DNA from: Candidatus Micrarchaeota archaeon | GTDB lineage: Archaea; Iainarchaeota; Iainarchaeia; Iainarchaeales; JAGVWC01 | Reading direction: 5' to 3' | DNA: 64,000 nt | Assembly (NCBI GenBank): GCA_043803815.1 | Contig: JAZDJR010000029.1 | Span: 7,979 to 71,978, forward strand | Part shown: positions 11,777 to 62,823 of the stretch, piece after piece | Numbering within the stretch: the first letter of the stretch is position 1 | Layout: every line of letters begins with the position of its first letter | Notes under the pieces: model-generated | Seen by the model: the letters and a program-made list of their open reading frames with translations, nothing else | Database searches by the model: none | Told to the model about the DNA's origin: nothing | Made by a program: the position numbers and the translations under genes

Positions 11777-11905
11777 GGACCTGTAGCCTAGCCTGGATAG
11801 GGCACCTGCCTTCTAAGGCTTTTTCTTCAAAAGAAAAACCCTGGAAAAAGAACAGGGAACGTCAAGGCGAGCAGGGGGTCGTGGGTTCAAATCCCACCAG
11901 GTCCG
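11777..11905 (+). tRNA. tRNA-Arg(TCT) with a 54-nt intron at 37/38 (11816-11869)
   Basis: Acceptor GGACCTG/CAGGTCC, anticodon stem CCTGC/GCAGG, T arm GTGGG-TTCAAAT-CCCAC; relaxed BHB. Confidence 0.92.
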
Positions 11906-11962
11906 CTTTATTTTTCCACTAGTGCTGGTGAGCTGGCTGATTAAATTAGGAAAGCTTTGAAA

Positions 11963-19199: not shown

Positions 19200-19322
19200 A
19201 TTGTAGGCGGGCGAATTCCCCCAAATAGTTCGAATCAGTTCCCTGTTTTTGGCTGGCGTTTTCTGCTGAAAAAGTATTACGCATAAAGTGGTATAAAGCG
19301 ATTTCGATGGGGTTCCTTAAAC
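19200..19322. repeat. Element-end repeat copy 1 (copy 2 at 21424-21546)
   Basis: About 120 bp imperfect direct repeat, roughly 80% identical by eye. Confidence 0.88.
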
Positions 19323-21441: not shown

Positions 21442-21579
21442 TACCCCAATAGTTTGAATCAGTTTCCGGTTTTGGTTGACTTTTTCTGCTGAAACACCAT
21501 TATGCATAAAGTAGTATAAAGCGTTTTCGATGGTGTTCCCTAAAACTATTTTTGCCCGTGATCCGGTTCTCTGTTTTTT

Positions 21580-48414: not shown

Positions 48415-49773
48415 TTATTTTTTATTTTTTTGTTTGATTGTTTTTTTGGGCGGGGTTTTCCAGTAGCCGCCTTTGTCTGGGCCAATTCTTTTGAGACTGC
48501 CTTGTTTTTTTAGGTTATTGATTTGCCATTCTATTCCTTTGGGGCTTATTCCTGTTTTTTTTGCCAGTTCATCGGTCGTTATTCTTGGCTGTTCGATTAT
48601 TAGGTCCACTATTTTCTCCCTAGTTTTCTCCCTAGTTTTCTCCCTAGTTTTCTCTTTGGGGTTTTCTTTGATTTTTGGTCTTTGAAAGGTCACGGTAAAA
48701 AATGTGGTGAATTCGAATTTTGGTTCTGGCAGTCCCGCTTCTTGCATTGCTTTTCGTATTCGGGCGATGCCGGAGCCGGCGTGTTCGACTAGATTGCTTT
48801 GTTGCAATAGTCCGAATAGGAGCGGGTTTCGGGATAGGCTTCTTTTTCCGAAGTCGCTTTGTTTGATGATGAGGCCGCCGGGATTTGATATTTCGACGCG
48901 GTTGTCGAAAACGTCTATTTGGGTTACGGCTCCTTTTTCGCTGTAGTCGCGGTGGCAGAGCGCGTTGATAATGGCTTCTTTGAGGGCTTCTTCGGGAATT
49001 TCGAGTATTTCTTTTCGGGGTCCAAATCCCTTTATTTCGTAGCGAAGTTTTAGGGTTCGGTACAAAAACTTGGATGTTTCGTTGTAATTGGAAACCGTGT
49101 CGTTTTTGAAGTCTTTTTTGTCAATGATGAGTGCTTTGTCGGTTCCTTTGTAGGTAATGCAGGTGATGATGCTTTGGGGGATGAACTTGGAAGGGTTTTT
49201 TCCAAAGAAAAGGATGGCTGCGTTTTTGAATTGGTTTTTTTGGTTTGTCAAACCCAAATTGTAGAATAGGTCTTTTTTTGGAATGGTTTTGGATATGCCA
49301 GCTTTTTTTAAAAACTCGTTGAATCGCTTTGTGTCAAAATCCTTCAAGGCAAAATCGGGGTTTATCATTTCTTCATACAGTATTTTTCCCTGTCGGTTAA
49401 AAAGTTCCCGTATTTCTTCGACTTCAAGTTTTTGGGAAGTGGAACCAATTCGCAAATAGAATCCTTGCGTGCAACGGTGCGGTTTTCGGTCGCTTTCCGG
49501 GACTGTGATAATAAGGACTTTTTTGAATTCTGAAATCTTGATGGAAATTGGCGGGTCGCAACTTCGAGCAATACTGTGGGCATCGGCCTTCAACCGGTTG
49601 GTAATATTGATTCCTTTGATTTTGTTGTCATCACTTACTCCGACCAGAATATCGCCGCCTTCGGCATTGGCAAAAGCCACGAGGTCTTTTTCAATTCCGT
49701 TCAGGTTTTCCTTGAACTCGCTTCGATAATCCTCGCCCTTTTTCAGGATAAAATCAAAGGTCTTTTTTTCCAT
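48415..49773 (-). CDS. Schlafen/AlbA_2 + HATPase-like + wHTH protein
   Basis: EFKE...LVAFANAEGG, EAIINALCHRDY, ISNPGG, RNP, GSGI, RIGPDKGGYW. Confidence 0.88.
   Translation of the reverse strand: MEKKTFDFILKKGEDYRSEFKENLNGIEKDLVAFANAEGGDILVGVSDDNKIKGINITNRLKADAHSIARSCDPPISIKISEFKKVLIITVPESDRKPHRCTQGFYLRIGSTSQKLEVEEIRELFNRQGKILYEEMINPDFALKDFDTKRFNEFLKKAGISKTIPKKDLFYNLGLTNQKNQFKNAAILFFGKNPSKFIPQSIITCITYKGTDKALIIDKKDFKNDTVSNYNETSKFLYRTLKLRYEIKGFGPRKEILEIPEEALKEAIINALCHRDYSEKGAVTQIDVFDNRVEISNPGGLIIKQSDFGKRSLSRNPLLFGLLQQSNLVEHAGSGIARIRKAMQEAGLPEPKFEFTTFFTVTFQRPKIKENPKEKTREKTREKTREKIVDLIIEQPRITTDELAKKTGISPKGIEWQINNLKKQGSLKRIGPDKGGYWKTPPKKTIKQKNKK
48612..48654. repeat. 12-bp tandem repeat encoding (KTRE)n
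   Basis: TTTTCTCCCTAG repeated about 3.5 times, in frame. Confidence 0.85.
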
Positions 49774-51140: not shown

Positions 51141-51207
51141 CAAATCACGTCTCCTTTTACCCAACCGAAAACCAATTAAAAGAGACGGATTCAAACAATT
51201 TGGTAAT

Positions 51208-51311
51208 TGCAGGCGGGCAGATTCGAACTGCCGAAAGCCACTAAGGCACAAGCCCATTGACCGTTGATACGGGCCTCAAGCTTGCGAAATTGACCGCTAT
51301 TCGACGCCTGC
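51208..51311 (-). tRNA. tRNA-Leu(GAG) with a 19-nt intron (51255-51273); integration target
   Basis: GCAGGCG/CGCCTGC acceptor, CAAGC/GCTTG stem, long variable arm, canonical BHB (TTGA/TCAA, CCGT/ACGG). Confidence 0.93.
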
Positions 51312-51416
51312 ACTATTGTAAAAGGGTTCAATAGTCCTTTTAAAATCTGTTCTCCCTGCTTGCCGATTCTTGCCGAATTTAATAGTACTGCTTGCGCACT
51401 AAAAAAAATAATGATA

Positions 51417-54398: not shown

Positions 54399-54451
54399 GC
54401 GGAGATGGCTAAACCTCAGCTTTTTGCTTTGGGCAAAAACCTGGGAAAAAG
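54399..54451 (+). repeat. Duplicated tRNA-Ser 5' fragment (17 nt) followed by a hairpin repeat copy
   Basis: GCGGAGATGGCTAAACC (16/17 match to the tRNA 5' end) + CAGCTTTTTGCTTTGGGCAAAAACCTGGGAAAAA. Confidence 0.85.
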
Positions 54452-54470: not shown

Positions 54471-54609
54471 GCGGAGATGGCTGAACCTGGTTAAGGCGCA
54501 CGCCTGGAAACTCAGCTTTTTTGCTTTCAGCAAAAAACCTGGGAAAAAATTGTTTAGCCCGTGAGCGTGTGGGCGAAAGCCCTTGTGGGTTCAAATCCCA
54601 CTCTCCGCG
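54471..54609 (+). tRNA. tRNA-Ser(GGA) with a 54-nt intron (54510-54563)
   Basis: GCGGAGA/TCTCCGC acceptor, CACGC/GCGTG stem, variable arm GGGC-GAAA-GCCC, T arm GTGGG-TTCAAAT-CCCAC. Confidence 0.92.
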
Positions 54610-54651
54610 CTTTCCTCAAAATAGTCTTAAAAAAAAGCATTGGTGTTTTGA

Positions 54652-59614: not shown

Positions 59615-60529
59615 TTATTTATCGCTTTTTTGGTTCGCCGGACTTGCAGCCGGAATTGTTTTTTGCCGCAACCGCTCGTAATTCTCGTCGGCCTTTTTTT
59701 GGATTTGGATTATCATTTCCGGCGTCAAATGCGAAAAGCGCTTTTGGCCGTTTAAATAATCCGAAACCGGCTGTCCGCTTTTCGGGTCAAAGTTCAGTTT
59801 GAAATTTCCGTTTTCGATTTCAAACAAAAACCACATGCGCGACTGAACCGCGGCTTTGGCGATTTGCATCGAGCGGCTTCCGTCAAAGCCCGCTCCGAGG
59901 CAGCACGGCGCATGAATCACAATAAAGCGGGCTCCTGTCATAGCTTGGGCTTTTTTTAATTTGAAACGCAAATCCGCAGGATACGCGACCGAAGCGCTTG
60001 CCGAGTATGCAATGTTGTGTGCGGCGGCAATTTCCGCAATCGGCTTGCGCTGTTTTTCGTTTCCATTATGAACAGAACCTGCTTGGGACGTGGTGGTAAC
60101 CGCCCCAAATGGGGTTGCGCCGCTTTTTTGGACTCCGGTATTCGCGTATTGCTCGTTGTCATAGCAAATGTACAGGACATCGTCGTTGCGGTCAAACATT
60201 CCAGATAACGCCGCAAAACCGATGTCATAGGTCGAACCGTCTCCCGCAATGCAGACCACGGTCGTGTGGTCGTTTCCCTTGGCTCGCAAGGCGGTACTGA
60301 CTCCGCTTGCAACCGCGGGAACGTTTTCAAACAAAGTGTGAATATACGGAACGCGCCAGGCGCTTTGGGGAAACTGCGTGGACGTGATTTCCATGCAACC
60401 TGTGGCATTCACGATGATAATGTCGTTTCCCAAAGCATCCAGAATCTGGATTAACGCGTTGGACGGCGCGCAACCGGGACAGCCCGCGTGGCCGGGAGCA
60501 TATAAGTGCATGTCGCTTTGCTGGCTCAT
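59615..60529 (-). CDS. porB: Pyruvate/2-oxoacid:ferredoxin oxidoreductase beta subunit
   Basis: GHAGCPGC, ATGC, GDG...YDNEQYANTG TPP motif. Confidence 0.93.
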   Translation of the reverse strand: MSQQSDMHLYAPGHAGCPGCAPSNALIQILDALGNDIIIVNATGCMEITSTQFPQSAWRVPYIHTLFENVPAVASGVSTALRAKGNDHTTVVCIAGDGSTYDIGFAALSGMFDRNDDVLYICYDNEQYANTGVQKSGATPFGAVTTTSQAGSVHNGNEKQRKPIAEIAAAHNIAYSASASVAYPADLRFKLKKAQAMTGARFIVIHAPCCLGAGFDGSRSMQIAKAAVQSRMWFLFEIENGNFKLNFDPKSGQPVSDYLNGQKRFSHLTPEMIIQIQKKADENYERLRQKTIPAASPANQKSDK

Positions 60530-61674
60530 TTTTTTGCCTCGGTTTTCTTGCCAATCCATTCGGAGATTGGTTCTTTGGTTTTGAGTTTGTCAAACAATAC
60601 TGCAATGTCTTTGCGCTTGAGATTTCTTCCGCCGAGGCAACCATAAAAACTGGAAACAATTGTCCCTGTGCCTTGCAATGCTTCCGCAACTTCAACGTAC
60701 AACGGCGCTTGGGCTCCGAGTGATAACGCGCGGTCAATCACTCCGACTTTTTTTCCTTTCAAAACTCGCGCAAGTTCTTCGCTTGGAAACGGGCGATAGC
60801 ATCGCAAGTGCAAACACCCGACTTTTTTTCCTTTTTTGCGGAGTTCTTCAACGGTTGCCTTGGCATTATCCATGGCGCTTCCAAGTCCAATCAAAACGAT
60901 TTTCGCGTCCTTGACATGGAATTCCTCGAACAATCCGTAGGAACGCTTGAATTGTTTTCCGAATAGTTTTCCAACTTCGAAAATCGTTTTTTTGGATGCA
61001 ATCAAATCGTTGTGCAGGTCTTCGCGGAATTCCTGGTAATATTGCGGAGCGGTATAGGCTCCCAATGTAATTGGGTTTTCAGGGTCGAGTTTAAAGGCGG
61101 GCTTAAACGCCGGCAAAAACGATTGGGTTTCTTTTTGGCTGGGAACATCCACTTGTCCGACCGCGTGCGTCAAATAATGGCCGTCCAGGCACACCATTAC
61201 GGGCAGATTGGTTTTTTCCGCGATTTCAAAGGCTTGAATGGTGTTGTCCACGGCTTCTTGATTGTTTTTGCAGTATAATTGTATCCAGCCGGTGTCTCGC
61301 TGGCTGATGGAATCCTGTTCGTCGTTCCAAATGGATAATGGCGCGGAAACCGCGCGGTTAGCAACCGCCATGACAACGGGCAATCTCAGTCCCGCAACCG
61401 CAAACAGCGCTTCGTGCATTAATAAGAGTCCCTGCGAGGAAGTCGCGGTAAAGCTTCGGGCACCTGCCGCGCTTGCGCCCATGACCGCGCTGATGGCTGA
61501 AAATTCGGATTCAACTGCGATAAAATTCTTGATTTCGCCGTTGGCAAAAAACCGGTCCATTTCTTCCACAATCTGCGTGGCAGGAGTAATGGGATAGCAG
61601 GCCACGACTTCGGGCCGGCAGTTTTTCGCGGCTTCGGCAACCGCTTCGTTTCCACTAATCGTTTTGACGACCAT
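60526..61674 (-). CDS. porA: Pyruvate/2-oxoacid:ferredoxin oxidoreductase alpha subunit
   Basis: GNEAVA, YPITP, VESE, TATSSQGL. Confidence 0.94.
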   Translation of the reverse strand: MVVKTISGNEAVAEAAKNCRPEVVACYPITPATQIVEEMDRFFANGEIKNFIAVESEFSAISAVMGASAAGARSFTATSSQGLLLMHEALFAVAGLRLPVVMAVANRAVSAPLSIWNDEQDSISQRDTGWIQLYCKNNQEAVDNTIQAFEIAEKTNLPVMVCLDGHYLTHAVGQVDVPSQKETQSFLPAFKPAFKLDPENPITLGAYTAPQYYQEFREDLHNDLIASKKTIFEVGKLFGKQFKRSYGLFEEFHVKDAKIVLIGLGSAMDNAKATVEELRKKGKKVGCLHLRCYRPFPSEELARVLKGKKVGVIDRALSLGAQAPLYVEVAEALQGTGTIVSSFYGCLGGRNLKRKDIAVLFDKLKTKEPISEWIGKKTEAKK

Positions 61675-61676
61675 TT

Positions 61677-61889
61677 TCAGTTCCCCTTTTTTGCAACCAG
61701 CGAACCGAGCAGGTAGCCAAATAACGCAAAAAGTGCAAAAGAAATAACTAAAATAGATAATGCCTTTAGCGCGTAATCGGAAGGCGGTCCTAATAGCATT
61801 AACAATTCGTTCAATATTCCAAATATTCCTCCGACAACCAGTCCGTATAACGCGAATTTTTTATTAGTTTCATTAAGTTTGAAATTCAT
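61677..61889 (-). CDS. Small two-TM membrane protein inside the por operon
   Basis: AGGTGA RBS, two hydrophobic helices. Confidence 0.65.
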   Translation of the reverse strand: MNFKLNETNKKFALYGLVVGGIFGILNELLMLLGPPSDYALKALSILVISFALFALFGYLLGSLVAKKGN

Positions 61890-61893
61890 CTTT

Positions 61894-62148
61894 TCACCTT
61901 TTTTCTGCTTCTCGTTCCATCTTGATGCATTTTACGGGGCATTCGACCGCGCAAATCCCGCAGCCCTTGCAATAATCCAAATCAATAACCGGAATTTCTT
62001 TTGGGGTTCCCATGATTCCTTCGGGGCAAAAATTTTGGCAGATTCCGCATTTAATGCATTCTTTAGCATCCACTTTAGGCTTGTCAACACTCCATTTTCC
62101 GGTCTTGTTGACAACGGTTGTTCCCGGCTTTGCAATCGCGAATTTCAT
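61894..62148 (-). CDS. porD: Pyruvate/2-oxoacid:ferredoxin oxidoreductase delta subunit
   Basis: KTGKW, CIKCGICQNFCP, YCKGCGICAVECP. Confidence 0.94.
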   Translation of the reverse strand: MKFAIAKPGTTVVNKTGKWSVDKPKVDAKECIKCGICQNFCPEGIMGTPKEIPVIDLDYCKGCGICAVECPVKCIKMEREAEKR

Positions 62149-62690
62149 TTTTTTTCACCGCTTGTTTTTTCAAAGCATTCCTGAACGGCTAAAATGTTTT
62201 GGGACGCGATTGTTGAGGGAAAGCGGCTTGAAATCGCTTTTTTAATGCTCTCGATTTTTACGATTCCGGTTATTTTGCACAACGCCCCGAGCATTACGGT
62301 GTTGGTAATCGGTTTTTTTAGATATTTAACCGCGATTTGAGTTCCATCCACGATGAAAACAAAATTGCTCTGCAGATTCAATTCTTTTTTAGGCTGATTT
62401 GAGTTCACAATCAGTTTTCCGGTTTTTTTCAGCCCAGCTTCGACTGAAACTTCCTGCAAAACCGACGGCTCGGCAACTACTATGATATCCGGCTCGTTTA
62501 TTTCCTCATGAATCGCAATCGGCTTGGAATCGATTCGGCAATAACTGGTAACCGGCGGCCCGCGTTTTTCCGAGCCGAAAAAAGGCATGGCCTGGCTAAA
62601 TTTTCCTTCCAAAGCCGCGGCTTCGGCCAAAAGTTCGGCAGCGGTAACGATTCCCTGTCCCGCCCGTCCATGAAAACGAATTTCAATCAT
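62145..62690 (-). CDS. porG: Pyruvate/2-oxoacid:ferredoxin oxidoreductase gamma subunit
   Basis: MIEIRFHGRAGQG, FGSEKRG, NTVMLGA. Confidence 0.94.
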   Translation of the reverse strand: MIEIRFHGRAGQGIVTAAELLAEAAALEGKFSQAMPFFGSEKRGPPVTSYCRIDSKPIAIHEEINEPDIIVVAEPSVLQEVSVEAGLKKTGKLIVNSNQPKKELNLQSNFVFIVDGTQIAVKYLKKPITNTVMLGALCKITGIVKIESIKKAISSRFPSTIASQNILAVQECFEKTSGEKK

Positions 62691-62711
62691 TGCATTTCCT
62701 CTTGGAACTTT

Positions 62712-62797
62712 CTTTTTCTCGAGCTTTTTTGCACGACGCAAAAAAGGCTGCTGGAAGCATTTTTTTTCCCAGGCTTTTTTCCGCAGAAAAAAGGCTG
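62712..62797 (-). repeat. Two tandem copies of the T-run/A-run hairpin repeat
   Basis: CAGCCTTTTTTCTGCGGAAAAAAGCCTGGGAAAAAA and CAGCCTTTTTTGCGTCGTGCAAAAAAGCTCGAGAAAAAG on the minus strand. Confidence 0.85.
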
Positions 62798-62823
62798 CGG
62801 CCATGAAAACGAATTTCTAGCAT
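62797..62823 (-). pseudogene. Duplicated 5' fragment of porG (MLEIRFHGR)
   Basis: ATGCTAGAAATTCGTTTTCATGGCCGC vs ATGATTGAAATTCGTTTTCATGGACGG, 23/27 identical. Confidence 0.85.

Follow-up and report, generated by a model that had tools for sequence, protein, structure and literature searches.

The window analysed here is a 64,000-nt stretch of a contig from a Candidatus Micrarchaeota archaeon, and its minus strand carries an operon for pyruvate:ferredoxin oxidoreductase (POR; Table 1). All subunits of the four-subunit enzyme are encoded: gamma (PF01558), delta (Fer4 families), alpha (PF01855 and PF17147) and beta (PF02775). The first gene, porG, specifies a gamma protein of 181 residues (PF01558, E 2e-40), and its orthologues in relatives begin at the same residue, with MIEIRFHGR or MLEIRFHGR.

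The start of porG is present twice, as the sequence-only reading had claimed. On the same strand, the real start (ATGATTGAAATTCGTTTTCATGGACGG, beginning at 62690) is preceded at a distance of 133 nt by a 27-nt copy (ATGCTAGAAATTCGTTTTCATGGCCGC, beginning at 62823). The two are identical at 23 of 27 positions and differ by CTA/ATT (Leu/Ile) and by two synonymous changes, GGC/GGA and CGC/CGG. Because 133 nt is not divisible by three, the two starts are in different frames. The flanking-repeat score at porG is 36–37, and scores of 36 or more were obtained at 0.12% of 5000 random sites of the same genome under identical scoring. The copies are separated by two tandem hairpin units, both of which match our covariance model R1: unit a at 70740–70777 of contig C29 of the genome under study (G000; E 5.6e-9) and unit b at 70691–70730 of that contig (E 6.1e-6). 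Unit a shows its stem in the predicted MFE and centroid structures alike, unit b in the centroid structure. The tail of unit b carries a Shine-Dalgarno-like GAGG about 8 nt ahead of the real porG ATG. A promoter-like TTGACA..TTTAAATA block, judged by eye, is common to the porG upstream regions of relatives.

Table 1 Features of the porG locus and tRNA-associated hairpin copies, in window coordinates
Feature	Position	Strand	Description
DR1, truncated porG start (upstream copy)	62797..62823	-	ATG and 8 codons (MLEIRFHGR); behind the native promoter-like TTTAAATA region; heads the 46-codon leader ORF
46-codon leader ORF	62683..62823	-	starts in DR1 and crosses both hairpin units; TGA overlaps porG codons 2-3
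Hairpin unit a	62760..62796	-	HP1a (AGCC-T6-CTGCGG-A6-GCCT) at 62796-62771, then GGG and A8 at 62770-62760
Short second hairpin of unit a, linker to unit b	62749..62759	-	TGC-TTCCA-GCA, read from the sequence
Hairpin unit b	62713..62752	-	HP1b (GCC-T6-GC-GTCGT-GC-A6-GC) at 62748-62723; degenerate TCGAG-A5 tail
Tail of unit b, GAAAGTTCCAAGAGGAAATGCA	62691..62712	-	small hairpin TTCC-AAGA-GGAA at 62707-62696
DR2, real porG start	62664..62690	-	MIEIRFHGR; runs on into the 181-aa POR gamma gene, 62145-62690
porG-porD-(70-aa hydrophobic ORF)-porA-porB operon	59615..62690	-	downstream of the insertion; PF01558, Fer4, POR_N/PFOR_II, TPP_enzyme_C
Hairpin in tRNA-Ser(GGA) 5′ leader	54415..54450	+	preceded by a 19-nt copy of the tRNA 5′ end; real tRNA at 54471-54610 follows
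Hairpin in tRNA-Ser(GGA) intron	54511..54549	+	begins 4 nt after the ARAGORN-called intron start
Hairpin in tRNA-Arg(TCT) intron	11814..11849	+	begins 1 nt after the intron start; tRNA at 11777-11906

The two units belong to a family of elements of about 40–55 nt that share a conserved hairpin, HP1, with the layout C-AGC(C), five to eight T, a variable upper stem and loop, five to eight A, and (G)CC-Y-GGG. A second run of five to eight A follows HP1 and leads into a short variable tail, often with a small second hairpin; small palindromes like that of unit a come after the A-run in many copies. Across 22 aligned copies, 94% of the cells of the HP1 stem pair, a C.C mismatch column is conserved, and 42 double-sided changes are found compared to 10.9 in shuffles, none of 500 of which reached 42. 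The stem mismatches are not clearly asymmetric between strands (20 G.T versus 13 A.C) and lend no support to strand-specific RNA folding.

G000 (1.08 Mb) contains 23 strong copies at E ≤ 1.8e-5, the next R1 match having an E value of only 0.017. One R1 match (contig C18, 48406) falls inside a coding sequence that we take to be Kae1-like and was set aside as a chance match. The element is present in 18 of the 41 genomes of the order, with 17 copies in G002, 18 (the most in any relative) in G003, 12 in G011, five in G023, four in G034 and none in G004. The exact HP1 pattern recurs in MAGs titled Woese-, Micr-, Iain-, Nano- and Undinarchaeota. Eight copy-bearing loci searched against Rfam at E ≤ 1 returned only tRNA and two chance-level matches, with no family for the hairpin, and full-text literature searches, supplementary files aside, yielded no description of it. 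The element occurs in both orientations relative to genes. Near-identical HP1 copies with exact repeats were found in G011 and G023, including four tRNAs with exact repeats of 21–25 nt, which points to recent activity, and tandem hairpin-tail-repeat arrays are seen in these two genomes and in several public MAGs. A guide-like complementarity of the G023 tails to their targets was considered and is accounted for by a conserved tail consensus, AGTAC..GTACGAAT, common to other genomes.

Direct repeats flank the element far more often than chance allows. Scores of at least 24 were obtained for 25 of 85 copies in G000 and five relatives, and for 27 of 81 exact-pattern matches in public genomes (contigs partly shared with the 85-copy set), compared to 1.5% of random sites; for repeats directly next to HP1, 8 of 31 score above the 99th percentile of 2000 random sites. 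Repeat lengths run from 14 to 85 nt (16, 16, 17, 21, 23 and 25 nt where exact), and the inserts between them measure 33–126 nt in the 25 repeat-flanked cases. The repeated sequences are gene ends: 5′ ends of tRNAs (Trp, Ser, His, Pro), 3′ ends of tRNAs (Arg, Pro), the porA-stop/porB-start junction of G003, and protein starts. In G000 the protein starts are those of porG, a lipoyl-domain E2-like gene and adenylate kinase; with seven further duplicated protein starts in G001, G002, G003 and G027, the total is ten in five genomes. We also considered a rule by which the real gene always lies on the A-run side, and rejected it: a real tRNA abuts HP1 in G003 (locus L059), and at the L1/P0 junction both sides are real.

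This junction also provides an empty site. G002 has the single-copy sequence GACGAGGTGAAACAATAAAATGACC, where G000 has the 15-nt GAGGTGAAACAATGA twice, around an insert of 55–56 nt, and the duplication preserves the L1 stop as well as the Shine-Dalgarno motif and start of P0. In G011 the same junction carries an independent insertion with a 25-nt repeat. The flanking repeats and this empty site bear out the earlier proposal that porG is an independent case of the hairpin standing between copies of a gene end; it is one of many. On the best reading, the element is a small, non-autonomous insertion element that produces a long, variable target duplication, and we put the probability that an insertion of this kind left the duplicated porG start as its footprint at about 0.7. 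In its favour, the porG start is free of the element at all 95 porG loci scanned (15 from relatives and 80 from metagenomes).

Several observations count against this reading. The repeat is seen at only about a third of copies, and a range of 14–85 nt fits no rigid transposase complex. Neither near-identical relatives nor reads supply an empty porG site at the nucleotide level: the closest genome is G003 at 74%, and the best match in a metagenome scan with PorG had 64% identity. One public DNA run (X1, share 0.07), aligned at 80% likeness, yielded short contigs of a relative of about 90% identity; as they do not bridge the porG start, they bear on neither empty alleles nor expression.

The association with tRNA genes invites a different view of the hairpin. 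Fourteen of the 23 strong G000 copies are inside a tRNA gene or no more than 400 nt from one. In three G000 tRNAs, HP1 begins 1–4 nt past the start of an intron at canonical position 37/38 (ARAGORN -i), and the tRNA-Arg(TCT) intron contains HP1 in three genomes, G000, G002 and G024. Elsewhere HP1 stands directly at tRNA 3′ ends (two Ala and one His in G000, others in G002, G003, G011 and G027). Archaeal T-run terminators sit at tRNA 3′ ends, and HP1 has T-runs on both strands. The hairpin might thus be mainly a conserved cellular signal that is not, or is no longer, mobile (an oligo-T terminator working in both directions, or a mark for RNA processing where tRNAs end and cistrons meet), the duplications being local by-products. 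The tRNA-Arg(TCT) intron and the spread of the exact HP1 pattern over several DPANN phylum labels agree with such a conserved function and, to that extent, speak against insertion, as do the T5–T8 runs, which resemble archaeal terminators and are awkward between a promoter and its gene. We consider this explanation unlikely, albeit one to be taken seriously. A static signal leaves unexplained the copies of the target on both sides, the empty site of G002 and the second insertion in G011, the near-identical bursts in single genomes, the occurrence of either orientation, and a site that separates porG from its promoter, at which a terminator would do harm. The signal and mobile readings are not exclusive, as a mobile element can be co-opted.

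The variability of the repeats suits a process that has no dedicated enzyme, in which template switching during replication or repair would copy the hairpin from elsewhere and rejoin upstream of the point of departure, with unequal recombination between the repeats then making the arrays found in G011, G023 and several public MAGs. Junction microhomologies of 0–3 nt, tails that are unique and often perfect palindromes, and the lack of an enzyme correlate among six families point the same way. Such an origin is conceivable, yet we doubt it: the 5′ boundary of the inserted hairpin is constant in nearly all copies, which suggests recognition, and the bursts of identical copies in single genomes resemble an active element.

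An incomplete tRNA copy next to an intact one is also the classic signature of integrases that insert larger mobile elements into gene ends, as when plasmids and viruses enter archaeal tRNA genes and a tRNA fragment stays behind; the present loci could be remnants of such events. Sugahara et al. 2012 (PMC3293823) describe a comparable case, in which a tRNA 5′ fragment and a 1.8-kb, recombinase-bearing insert are linked to intron gain. The element in our case, however, is a gene-less hairpin insert of merely 33–126 nt whose targets extend to protein starts and gene junctions; each repeat corresponds to its individual target and not to one attachment site; a larger element between the repeats was found in none of the 25 repeat-flanked cases; and the exact HP1 pattern has no match in 2.9 million viral contigs. 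An integrase remnant is therefore highly improbable.

A search of the 41 genomes for Y1_Tnp, RVT_1, Cas1, IS1634, DDE_Tnp_1 and the TnpB zinc-ribbon showed that no transposase, reverse transcriptase or integrase of these six families tracks the element, which is a further point against insertion. The copy-rich G003 and G011, both fragmented and about 83% complete, have none of the six. Y1_Tnp was detected in 11 of the 41 genomes and not in G002, G003, G011 or G023; the Y1 transposase of contig C21 is 2.2 kb from the nearest hairpins. The IS1634 family (NF033559) scored above its cut-off only in G004, which has no copies, and G034, which has four, and is absent from G000, G003, G011 and G023. 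Cas1 is absent from G000, G001–G003, G011 and G023. Of the new, target-rescuing insertion mechanism that had been suggested, the rescue stands, in that the duplication leaves an intact gene, and the mechanism found no enzyme among these families.

The distribution of RVT_1 bears on a SINE-like retroposition, in which an abundant transcript, for instance an excised tRNA intron bearing HP1, would be copied at a nicked target to yield a precise 5′ junction, a 3′ end that is A-rich and variable, and target duplications that differ in length. The repeat does abut HP1, the 3′ side is variable and A-rich, repeat lengths span 14–85 nt, and the position of HP1 just past the intron start in three tRNAs would fit such a source. 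RVT_1, however, was detected in 8 of the 41 genomes and not in G000, G002, G003, G011 or G023, burst genomes included (other RT-like polymerases were outside this search), the G.T and A.C mismatches are not clearly asymmetric between strands, and the element takes both orientations relative to transcription. Retroposition is, in our estimate, improbable.

At porG the upstream frame is open for 46 codons (46 aa), as had been noted, and closes with a TGA that ends 5 nt beyond the real ATG. This coupled geometry is present in nine of nine protein-start cases, and the upstream copies retain their start codon in all nine. In control frames, the inserts are free of stops in 27 of 30, and the other off-frames likewise stop beside the start in 7 of 10 cases. 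The geometry is thus largely automatic because the composition of the element is stop-poor, and phase-specific selection for a leader ORF is rejected by these controls. The geometry therefore gives no evidence of selection for the putative regulatory leader that the sequence-only reading had envisaged; the predicted fold of the 161-nt porG leader is of unexceptional stability (z = −0.78). The claim that the copies differ by synonymous or conservative changes receives a weak lean in its favour over ten cases (16 synonymous versus 14 non-synonymous codons; 22 differences at third positions versus 15 at others), and the differences lean somewhat further towards synonymous changes than simple decay would predict, a point against the insertion reading. 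The A-run was also considered as a promoter for the downstream gene and discarded, since its distance from the start (14–27 nt across cases) is too variable.

The retained start codons, the lean towards synonymous differences and the residence of the hairpin in tRNA introns could mean that the upstream copy is the true start and that the insert is removed by bulge-helix-bulge splicing or ribosomal bypassing. This is very hard to uphold. The downstream copy is whole and has a start and a Shine-Dalgarno-like motif of its own, and at tRNA 3′ ends the element is antisense to the tRNA. As a test of bulge-helix-bulge exon-intron pairing around porG and other non-intron copies, duplex energies were computed for the 14 nt preceding HP1 against the 45 nt that follow it; in 148 elements this pairing does not surpass that of permuted pairs (p = 0.25), which speaks against a general enclosing helix or mobile-intron structure and leaves splicing of the insert from porG mRNA unsupported.

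Known systems share parts of this pattern. Like MITEs, the element is small (below 300 bp), non-coding, present in many copies, hairpin-forming, flanked by target duplications mostly at gene borders, and found in near-identical bursts. MITEs have a fixed short duplication (2–10 bp), set by the cognate IS transposase that shares their ends. The hairpin element, in contrast, has long repeats of no fixed length and one conserved end, where HP1 is the sole inverted repeat, and no IS with such ends was seen. To our knowledge, the IS1634/IS1549 group of the IS4 family contains the only insertion sequences with similarly long and very variable direct repeats (tens to hundreds of bp), but these are elements of 1.5–2 kb with a DDE transposase, and the hairpin does not follow NF033559. 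REP and BIME sequences are likewise imperfect, extragenic palindromes of 20–40 nt in many copies, some of them tandemly arranged, and their stems contain a conserved mismatch. REPs, however, are not known to generate target duplications; they possess a conserved 5′ tetranucleotide and are located on the flanks of a RAYT gene, whereas the hairpin element is repeat-flanked in about a third of copies and Y1_Tnp does not follow it.

Integration by Cas1, in CRISPR spacer acquisition and in casposons, also leaves an insert flanked by a duplicated target (14–37 bp), and casposon targets are gene 3′ ends and tRNA genes. The hairpin differs in that it has no casposon-type terminal inverted repeats, its duplication length is not fixed, and Cas1 is missing from the key genomes. 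The palindromic elements of Rickettsia and the mitochondrial ‘byp’ elements are small palindromic or hairpin elements in or at the edge of genes, RNA genes included, and resemble the present one in being tolerated there. Those are in frame or bypassed by the ribosome, whereas here the insert is off-frame at 133 nt and the duplicated gene end would provide the rescue.

On the insertion reading, we propose that the two tandem units entered after codon 9 of porG and that no less than 27 nt of the target, spanning ATG to codon 9, came to lie on both sides. The upstream copy would have kept the native promoter and 5′ UTR and now merely head the 46-codon ORF; the downstream copy, with GAGG in the tail ahead of it, would head the intact porG-D-A-B operon. 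Since the long duplication regenerates one complete gene end, the insertion would be harmless, and in an almost spacer-free genome the element could persist within the first or last 10–40 nt of a gene. Insertion would take place at the DNA level, into wide, variably staggered breaks followed by fill-in, presumably catalysed in trans by a putative enzyme. The insert is probably co-transcribed with porG, in which case ribosomes may initiate at the former ATG, open up the hairpins and stop beside the real start, which may aid re-initiation.

A wider reading, which we advance tentatively, is that the hairpin is a DPANN-wide element, enzyme-less or mobilised by the host, that has also been the means by which archaeal tRNAs gained introns. 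Canonical tRNA introns would be built around this unit, its 5′ end coinciding with the splice site, and it would likewise insert, duplicating long stretches of target, in D-loops, T-loops, leaders and trailers and at the starts of protein genes. A 2026 preprint on Asgard tRNAs leaves open the route by which introns arrive. If the wider reading is true, a single process gives rise to introns as well as tRNA fragments and reshapes gene ends and operon junctions in these minimal genomes.

One short element is found in two states in many DPANN genomes, resident in tRNA introns and freshly inserted at the ends of tRNA and protein genes, and the question of intron origin therefore becomes testable with population metagenomes and RNA data. 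In annotation, the insertion sites give rise to spurious upstream starts, short leader ORFs and pseudo-tRNA fragments. In physiological terms, they put strong T-run hairpins inside central operons (POR, ribosomal proteins), with a predicted effect on transcription read-through and translation. A selfish insertion can, by this account, persist in genomes that are nearly free of non-coding DNA, as the long target duplication would regenerate the gene end.

The start of porG is present twice, much as the sequence-only reading had claimed: two copies 133 nt apart, identical at 23 of 27 bases, enclose two hairpin units (a unit being the conserved hairpin HP1, an A-run and a tail). They differ, conservatively as had also been claimed, by an L/I exchange (CTA/ATT) and two synonymous third positions. 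As flanking repeats they score 36–37; of 5000 random sites in the same genome, 0.12% score that high or higher. The downstream ATG, with GAGG 8 nt before it, opens a 181-aa POR gamma protein (PF01558, E 2e-40), and the porG orthologues of nine relatives begin at the same residue (MIEIRFHGR, MLEIRFHGR or similar); no GAGG-type motif precedes the upstream copy. Next in the operon come the delta subunit with its 4Fe-4S domain, a hydrophobic ORF of 70 aa and the subunits alpha (POR_N, PFOR_II) and beta (TPP_enzyme_C), the subunits being named from Pfam. A promoter-like block TTGACA..TTTAAATA, conserved ahead of the relatives' porG, was recognized by eye upstream of the truncated copy, which thus marks the ancestral start position. 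The insert, two units long, comprises 106–107 nt and supplies the GAGG. We put the probability that the porG duplication is the insertion footprint of the hairpin element at about 70%.

Regular-expression scans of the whole assembly (1.08 Mb, 36 contigs) recovered the same motif at many loci of this genome, G000. Aligning 22 copies yields the consensus C-AGC(C)-T5-8-variable stem/loop-A5-8-(G)CC-Y-GGG-A5-8, in which 94% of stem cells are paired. Cells changed on both sides of the stem number 42, against 10.9 ± 3.1 in shuffles, none of 500 of which reaches this value; the outer pair switches jointly between A-U and G-C, one C·C mismatch is kept, and all slid registers are far poorer. A covariance model built from aligned copies (R1) finds 23 copies in G000 at E ≤ 1.8e-5, the next match following only at E = 0.017; one of them, within a CDS that we take to be Kae1-like, is probably a chance match. 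The SSU model match of G000 is archaeal (1409 bits). R1 matches at E ≤ 0.01 occur in 18 of the 41 genomes of the order scanned, including all three other genera of the family, with up to 18 copies per individual genome in that scan. The exact HP1 pattern occurs in 91 stretches of a species-representative genome collection; of the 80 listed, whose titles were checked, 77 bear titles of archaea (Woesearchaeota, Micrarchaeota, Iainarchaeum, Nanoarchaeota, Undinarchaeota and, for several MAGs, 'uncultured Methanosarcinales'), and the three with bacterial titles are probably due to chance. Among 2.9 million viral contigs the pattern does not occur, and no Rfam family matched the element.

When 90 nt upstream of each copy were aligned with 130–160 nt downstream, 8 of 31 G000 candidates scored above the 99th percentile set by 2000 random sites. 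Repeats scoring at least 24, a value reached at 1.5% of random sites, and ending within 6 nt of HP1 flank 25 of 85 copies (in G000 and its relatives G001, G002, G003, G011, G023, G024 and G027), and repeats scoring at least 24 flank 27 of 81 public exact-pattern matches, two overlapping and non-independent counts because some public contigs come from the same genomes. With X denoting the repeated target stretch, the layout is invariant: X / HP1 - A-run - tail / X. One X adjoins the 5′ side of HP1, sometimes via 3–7 extra stem-extending bases, and the second comes after a tail of 3–90 nt. Tails are partly conserved inside subfamilies (GAAAAC...; CAAGTAC..GTACGAAT...) and often contain a perfect small palindrome found in that copy alone. 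X is 14–85 nt long, with exact repeats of 16, 16, 17, 21, 23 and 25 nt; the longer repeats lie mostly in tandem arrays of (HP1-tail-X). On two public Woesearchaeota-titled contigs (L127, L121), 71–85-nt repeats by hairpins hold an apparent tRNA T-arm, its T-loop broken by ~50 nt flanked by TTCGAA / TCGAAA, perhaps an interruption of another type.

X coincides with gene ends of several sorts. At tRNA 5′ ends it runs from position 1 to about 10–30 and at 3′ ends from the T-loop through the discriminator plus 1–4 nt; four tRNAs of G023 carry exact repeats and identical hairpins. A start copy followed by a hairpin and the gene, the pattern for which a scan had been proposed, occurs at ten protein starts in five genomes: porG, an E2-like gene and adk in G000, three including porB in G003, two in G001 and one each in G002 and G027, the last presumably CoaE-like from its GxxGxGKS motif. 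In further cases X is a gene junction, most clearly at L1/P0. There G002 has a single sequence, ...GACGAGGTGAAACAATAAAATGACC..., and in most of the remaining relatives the stop codon of L1 overlaps the ATG of P0. G000 carries the 15-nt GAGGTGAAACAATGA twice, around a 55–56-nt insert whose hairpin is reversed; copy one closes L1 (..DEVKQ*) and the second gives the P0 Shine-Dalgarno and ATG. The two genomes form an empty-site/filled-site pair, and the junction was hit a second time in G011 (locus L272, contig C112), where a diverged hairpin, also reversed, was independently inserted with a 25-nt repeat. The main inference of the sequence-only reading, a hairpin sitting between gene-end duplications, finds support in these independent cases and in an empty site. 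That site came from L1/P0; the comparison suggested for porG found the element at no other porG start among 95 loci scanned. The por operons were struck at least twice more: the G003 porA-stop/porB-start junction holds a hairpin with a 34–35-nt duplication, and the G002 porA/porB junction a hairpin for which no repeat was detected.

Fourteen of the 23 strong copies are located in a tRNA gene or within 400 nt of one. With introns allowed, ARAGORN predicts 36 tRNA genes in G000 and calls introns, some doubtful, in 22; without introns it finds none in the window. Copies occupy introns at the canonical position in Arg-TCT, Ser-GGA and Leu-TAA, HP1 beginning 1–4 nt past the intron start, and one further tRNA intron holds the element reversed. 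Others immediately abut tRNA 3′ ends (Ala twice, His) or lie in 5′ leaders (Trp, Ser, His) and 3′ trailers (Arg, Pro). Copies also occur at protein starts (two at porG, one each at a lipoyl-domain E2-like gene and adenylate kinase, named from Pfam) between the ribosomal protein genes L1 and P0/L10, and in intergenic DNA. The strong bias to tRNA genes exceeds what tolerance of insertion alone explains and suggests targeting to, or origin in, tRNA genes.

Coordinates of the element copies, associated genes and other repeats (window positions unless a genome and contig are named)
Feature	Position	Strand	Remarks
Upstream porG start copy	62823-62797	-	ATG CTA GAA ATT CGT TTT CAT GGC CGC; sequence read
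Real porG start	62690-62664	-	ATG ATT GAA ATT CGT TTT CAT GGA CGG; sequence read
Leader ORF	62683-62823	-	46 codons
ORF in frame with porG	62145-62804	-	219 aa; ATG inside upstream copy
ORF between porD and porA	61677-61889	-	70 aa, strongly hydrophobic; two membrane-like stretches by eye
tRNA Arg-TCT	11777-11906		intron; missed by default ARAGORN
tRNA Leu-GAG	51207-51312		intron; missed by default ARAGORN
tRNA Ser-GGA	54471-54610		intron; missed by default ARAGORN
Tandem repeat (family D12)	48612-48659		perfect 12-nt TTTTCTCCCTAG, x3-4
Direct repeat (family D5)	19247-19321, 21470-21544		75 nt, 85% identity, 2.2 kb apart
L1/P0 hairpin	G000:C36:9645-9682		reversed
adk hairpin	G000:C24:19624-19664		at duplicated start
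DDE_Tnp_1 transposase ORF	G000:C24:19788-20687	+	~100 nt upstream of adk start and hairpin
Y1 transposase	G000:C21:1362-1856	-	IS200/IS605-type; 4.8-kb contig
Hairpin array	G000:C21:4028-4200		3-4 units
rRNA operon hairpin	G000:C4:56623-56660		directly 3′ of tRNA-Ala(TGC), between 16S gene and downstream spacer
16S gene	G000:C4:56905-58390
tRNA-Ala(CGC)+hairpin+spacer	G000:C29:7361-7467		comparable arrangement, just beyond window edge
porA/porB hairpin (L066)	G003:C29:7023-7057
porA/porB hairpin (L079)	G002:C7:18861-18897

The upstream porG frame does stay open for 46 codons, its TGA overlapping porG codons 2–3, but the coupled leader ORF proposed from it held only in its geometry. An ORF from the upstream copy spans the insert in all nine scorable protein-start cases, stops end −6 to +19 nt relative to the real start, and in four of these cases the overlap is ATGA/GTGA, an arrangement that looks like translational coupling. 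However, 27 of 30 reading frames through the inserts lack a stop, and in 7 of 10 cases the other off-frames likewise stop beside the real start. Element composition (T-runs, A-runs, G/C) and stop-rich start regions therefore account for the geometry, which is not evidence of selection. It may well matter functionally, as ribosomes would melt the hairpins. The 161-nt porG leader as a whole is of ordinary stability (z = −0.78), and its first hairpin (HP1a) and a small tail hairpin are present in both MFE and centroid structures. The 219-aa in-frame ORF would lengthen PorG by 38 basic/hydrophobic residues coded by the two units (AAAFFLRKKAWEKK / QQPFLRRAKKLEKKK); no ribosome-binding motif precedes its ATG, and we regard it as incidental. 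In well-studied archaea, the T5–T8 runs would be terminators; transcription of porG, E2, porB and P0 would have to cross them.

The element inserts in either orientation, repeatedly and in some genomes recently, duplicating its target in long, variable repeats. Breaks on the two strands would lie far apart and then be filled in; an insertion would survive where the duplicated stretch includes a whole gene end, and such duplications would form a large share of tolerated sites in compact genomes. Later unequal recombination of the two copies would yield arrays or remove the insert. Flank pairing in 148 elements lends no general support to removal at the RNA level, and stem mismatches show no clear strand bias. 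Differences between protein-start copies (22 third-position versus 15 elsewhere, for an expected third-position share that we roughly estimate at about 44%; 16 synonymous versus 14 non-synonymous codons) lean somewhat further towards synonymous change than would be expected if one copy decayed and the other changed under constraint, which is suggestive only. Six candidate enzyme families were each searched in 41 genomes and found in 11 (Y1_Tnp), 8 (RVT_1), 7 (Cas1), 2 (IS1634, over cut-off), 16 (DDE_Tnp_1) and 18 (TnpB zinc-ribbon); none tracks the element there. None of the six was found in G003 or G011, whose assemblies are fragmented and only about 83% complete and may therefore be missing an IS. 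The DDE_Tnp_1 ORF next to the adenylate kinase duplication may be a coincidence; on C21, 2.2 kb containing other ORFs separate the Y1 transposase from the hairpin array.

With MITEs and REP-like repeats the element shares its small size, hairpin fold and many copies, and with the IS1634/IS1549 group its long variable duplications. Cas1-type integrations duplicate a 14–37-bp target, a likeness in target duplication to which the element brings no Cas1. Larger elements integrating into archaeal tRNA genes leave tRNA fragments and have been tied to intron gain (Sugahara et al. 2012, PMC3293823); the hairpin insert, by contrast, bears no integrase. The element has no cognate transposase, terminal repeats, fixed duplication, Cas1, RT or integrase-bearing insert, and departs from each of these closest kinds in its defining features. 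Full-text literature searches, which covered main texts, yielded no description of the element, and a 2026 preprint treats the arrival route of archaeal tRNA introns as still open. We file the element as a small non-autonomous insertion element, unusual in that it rescues gene ends by a long target duplication of variable length, in its residence in tRNA introns and its spread over DPANN-labelled archaea.
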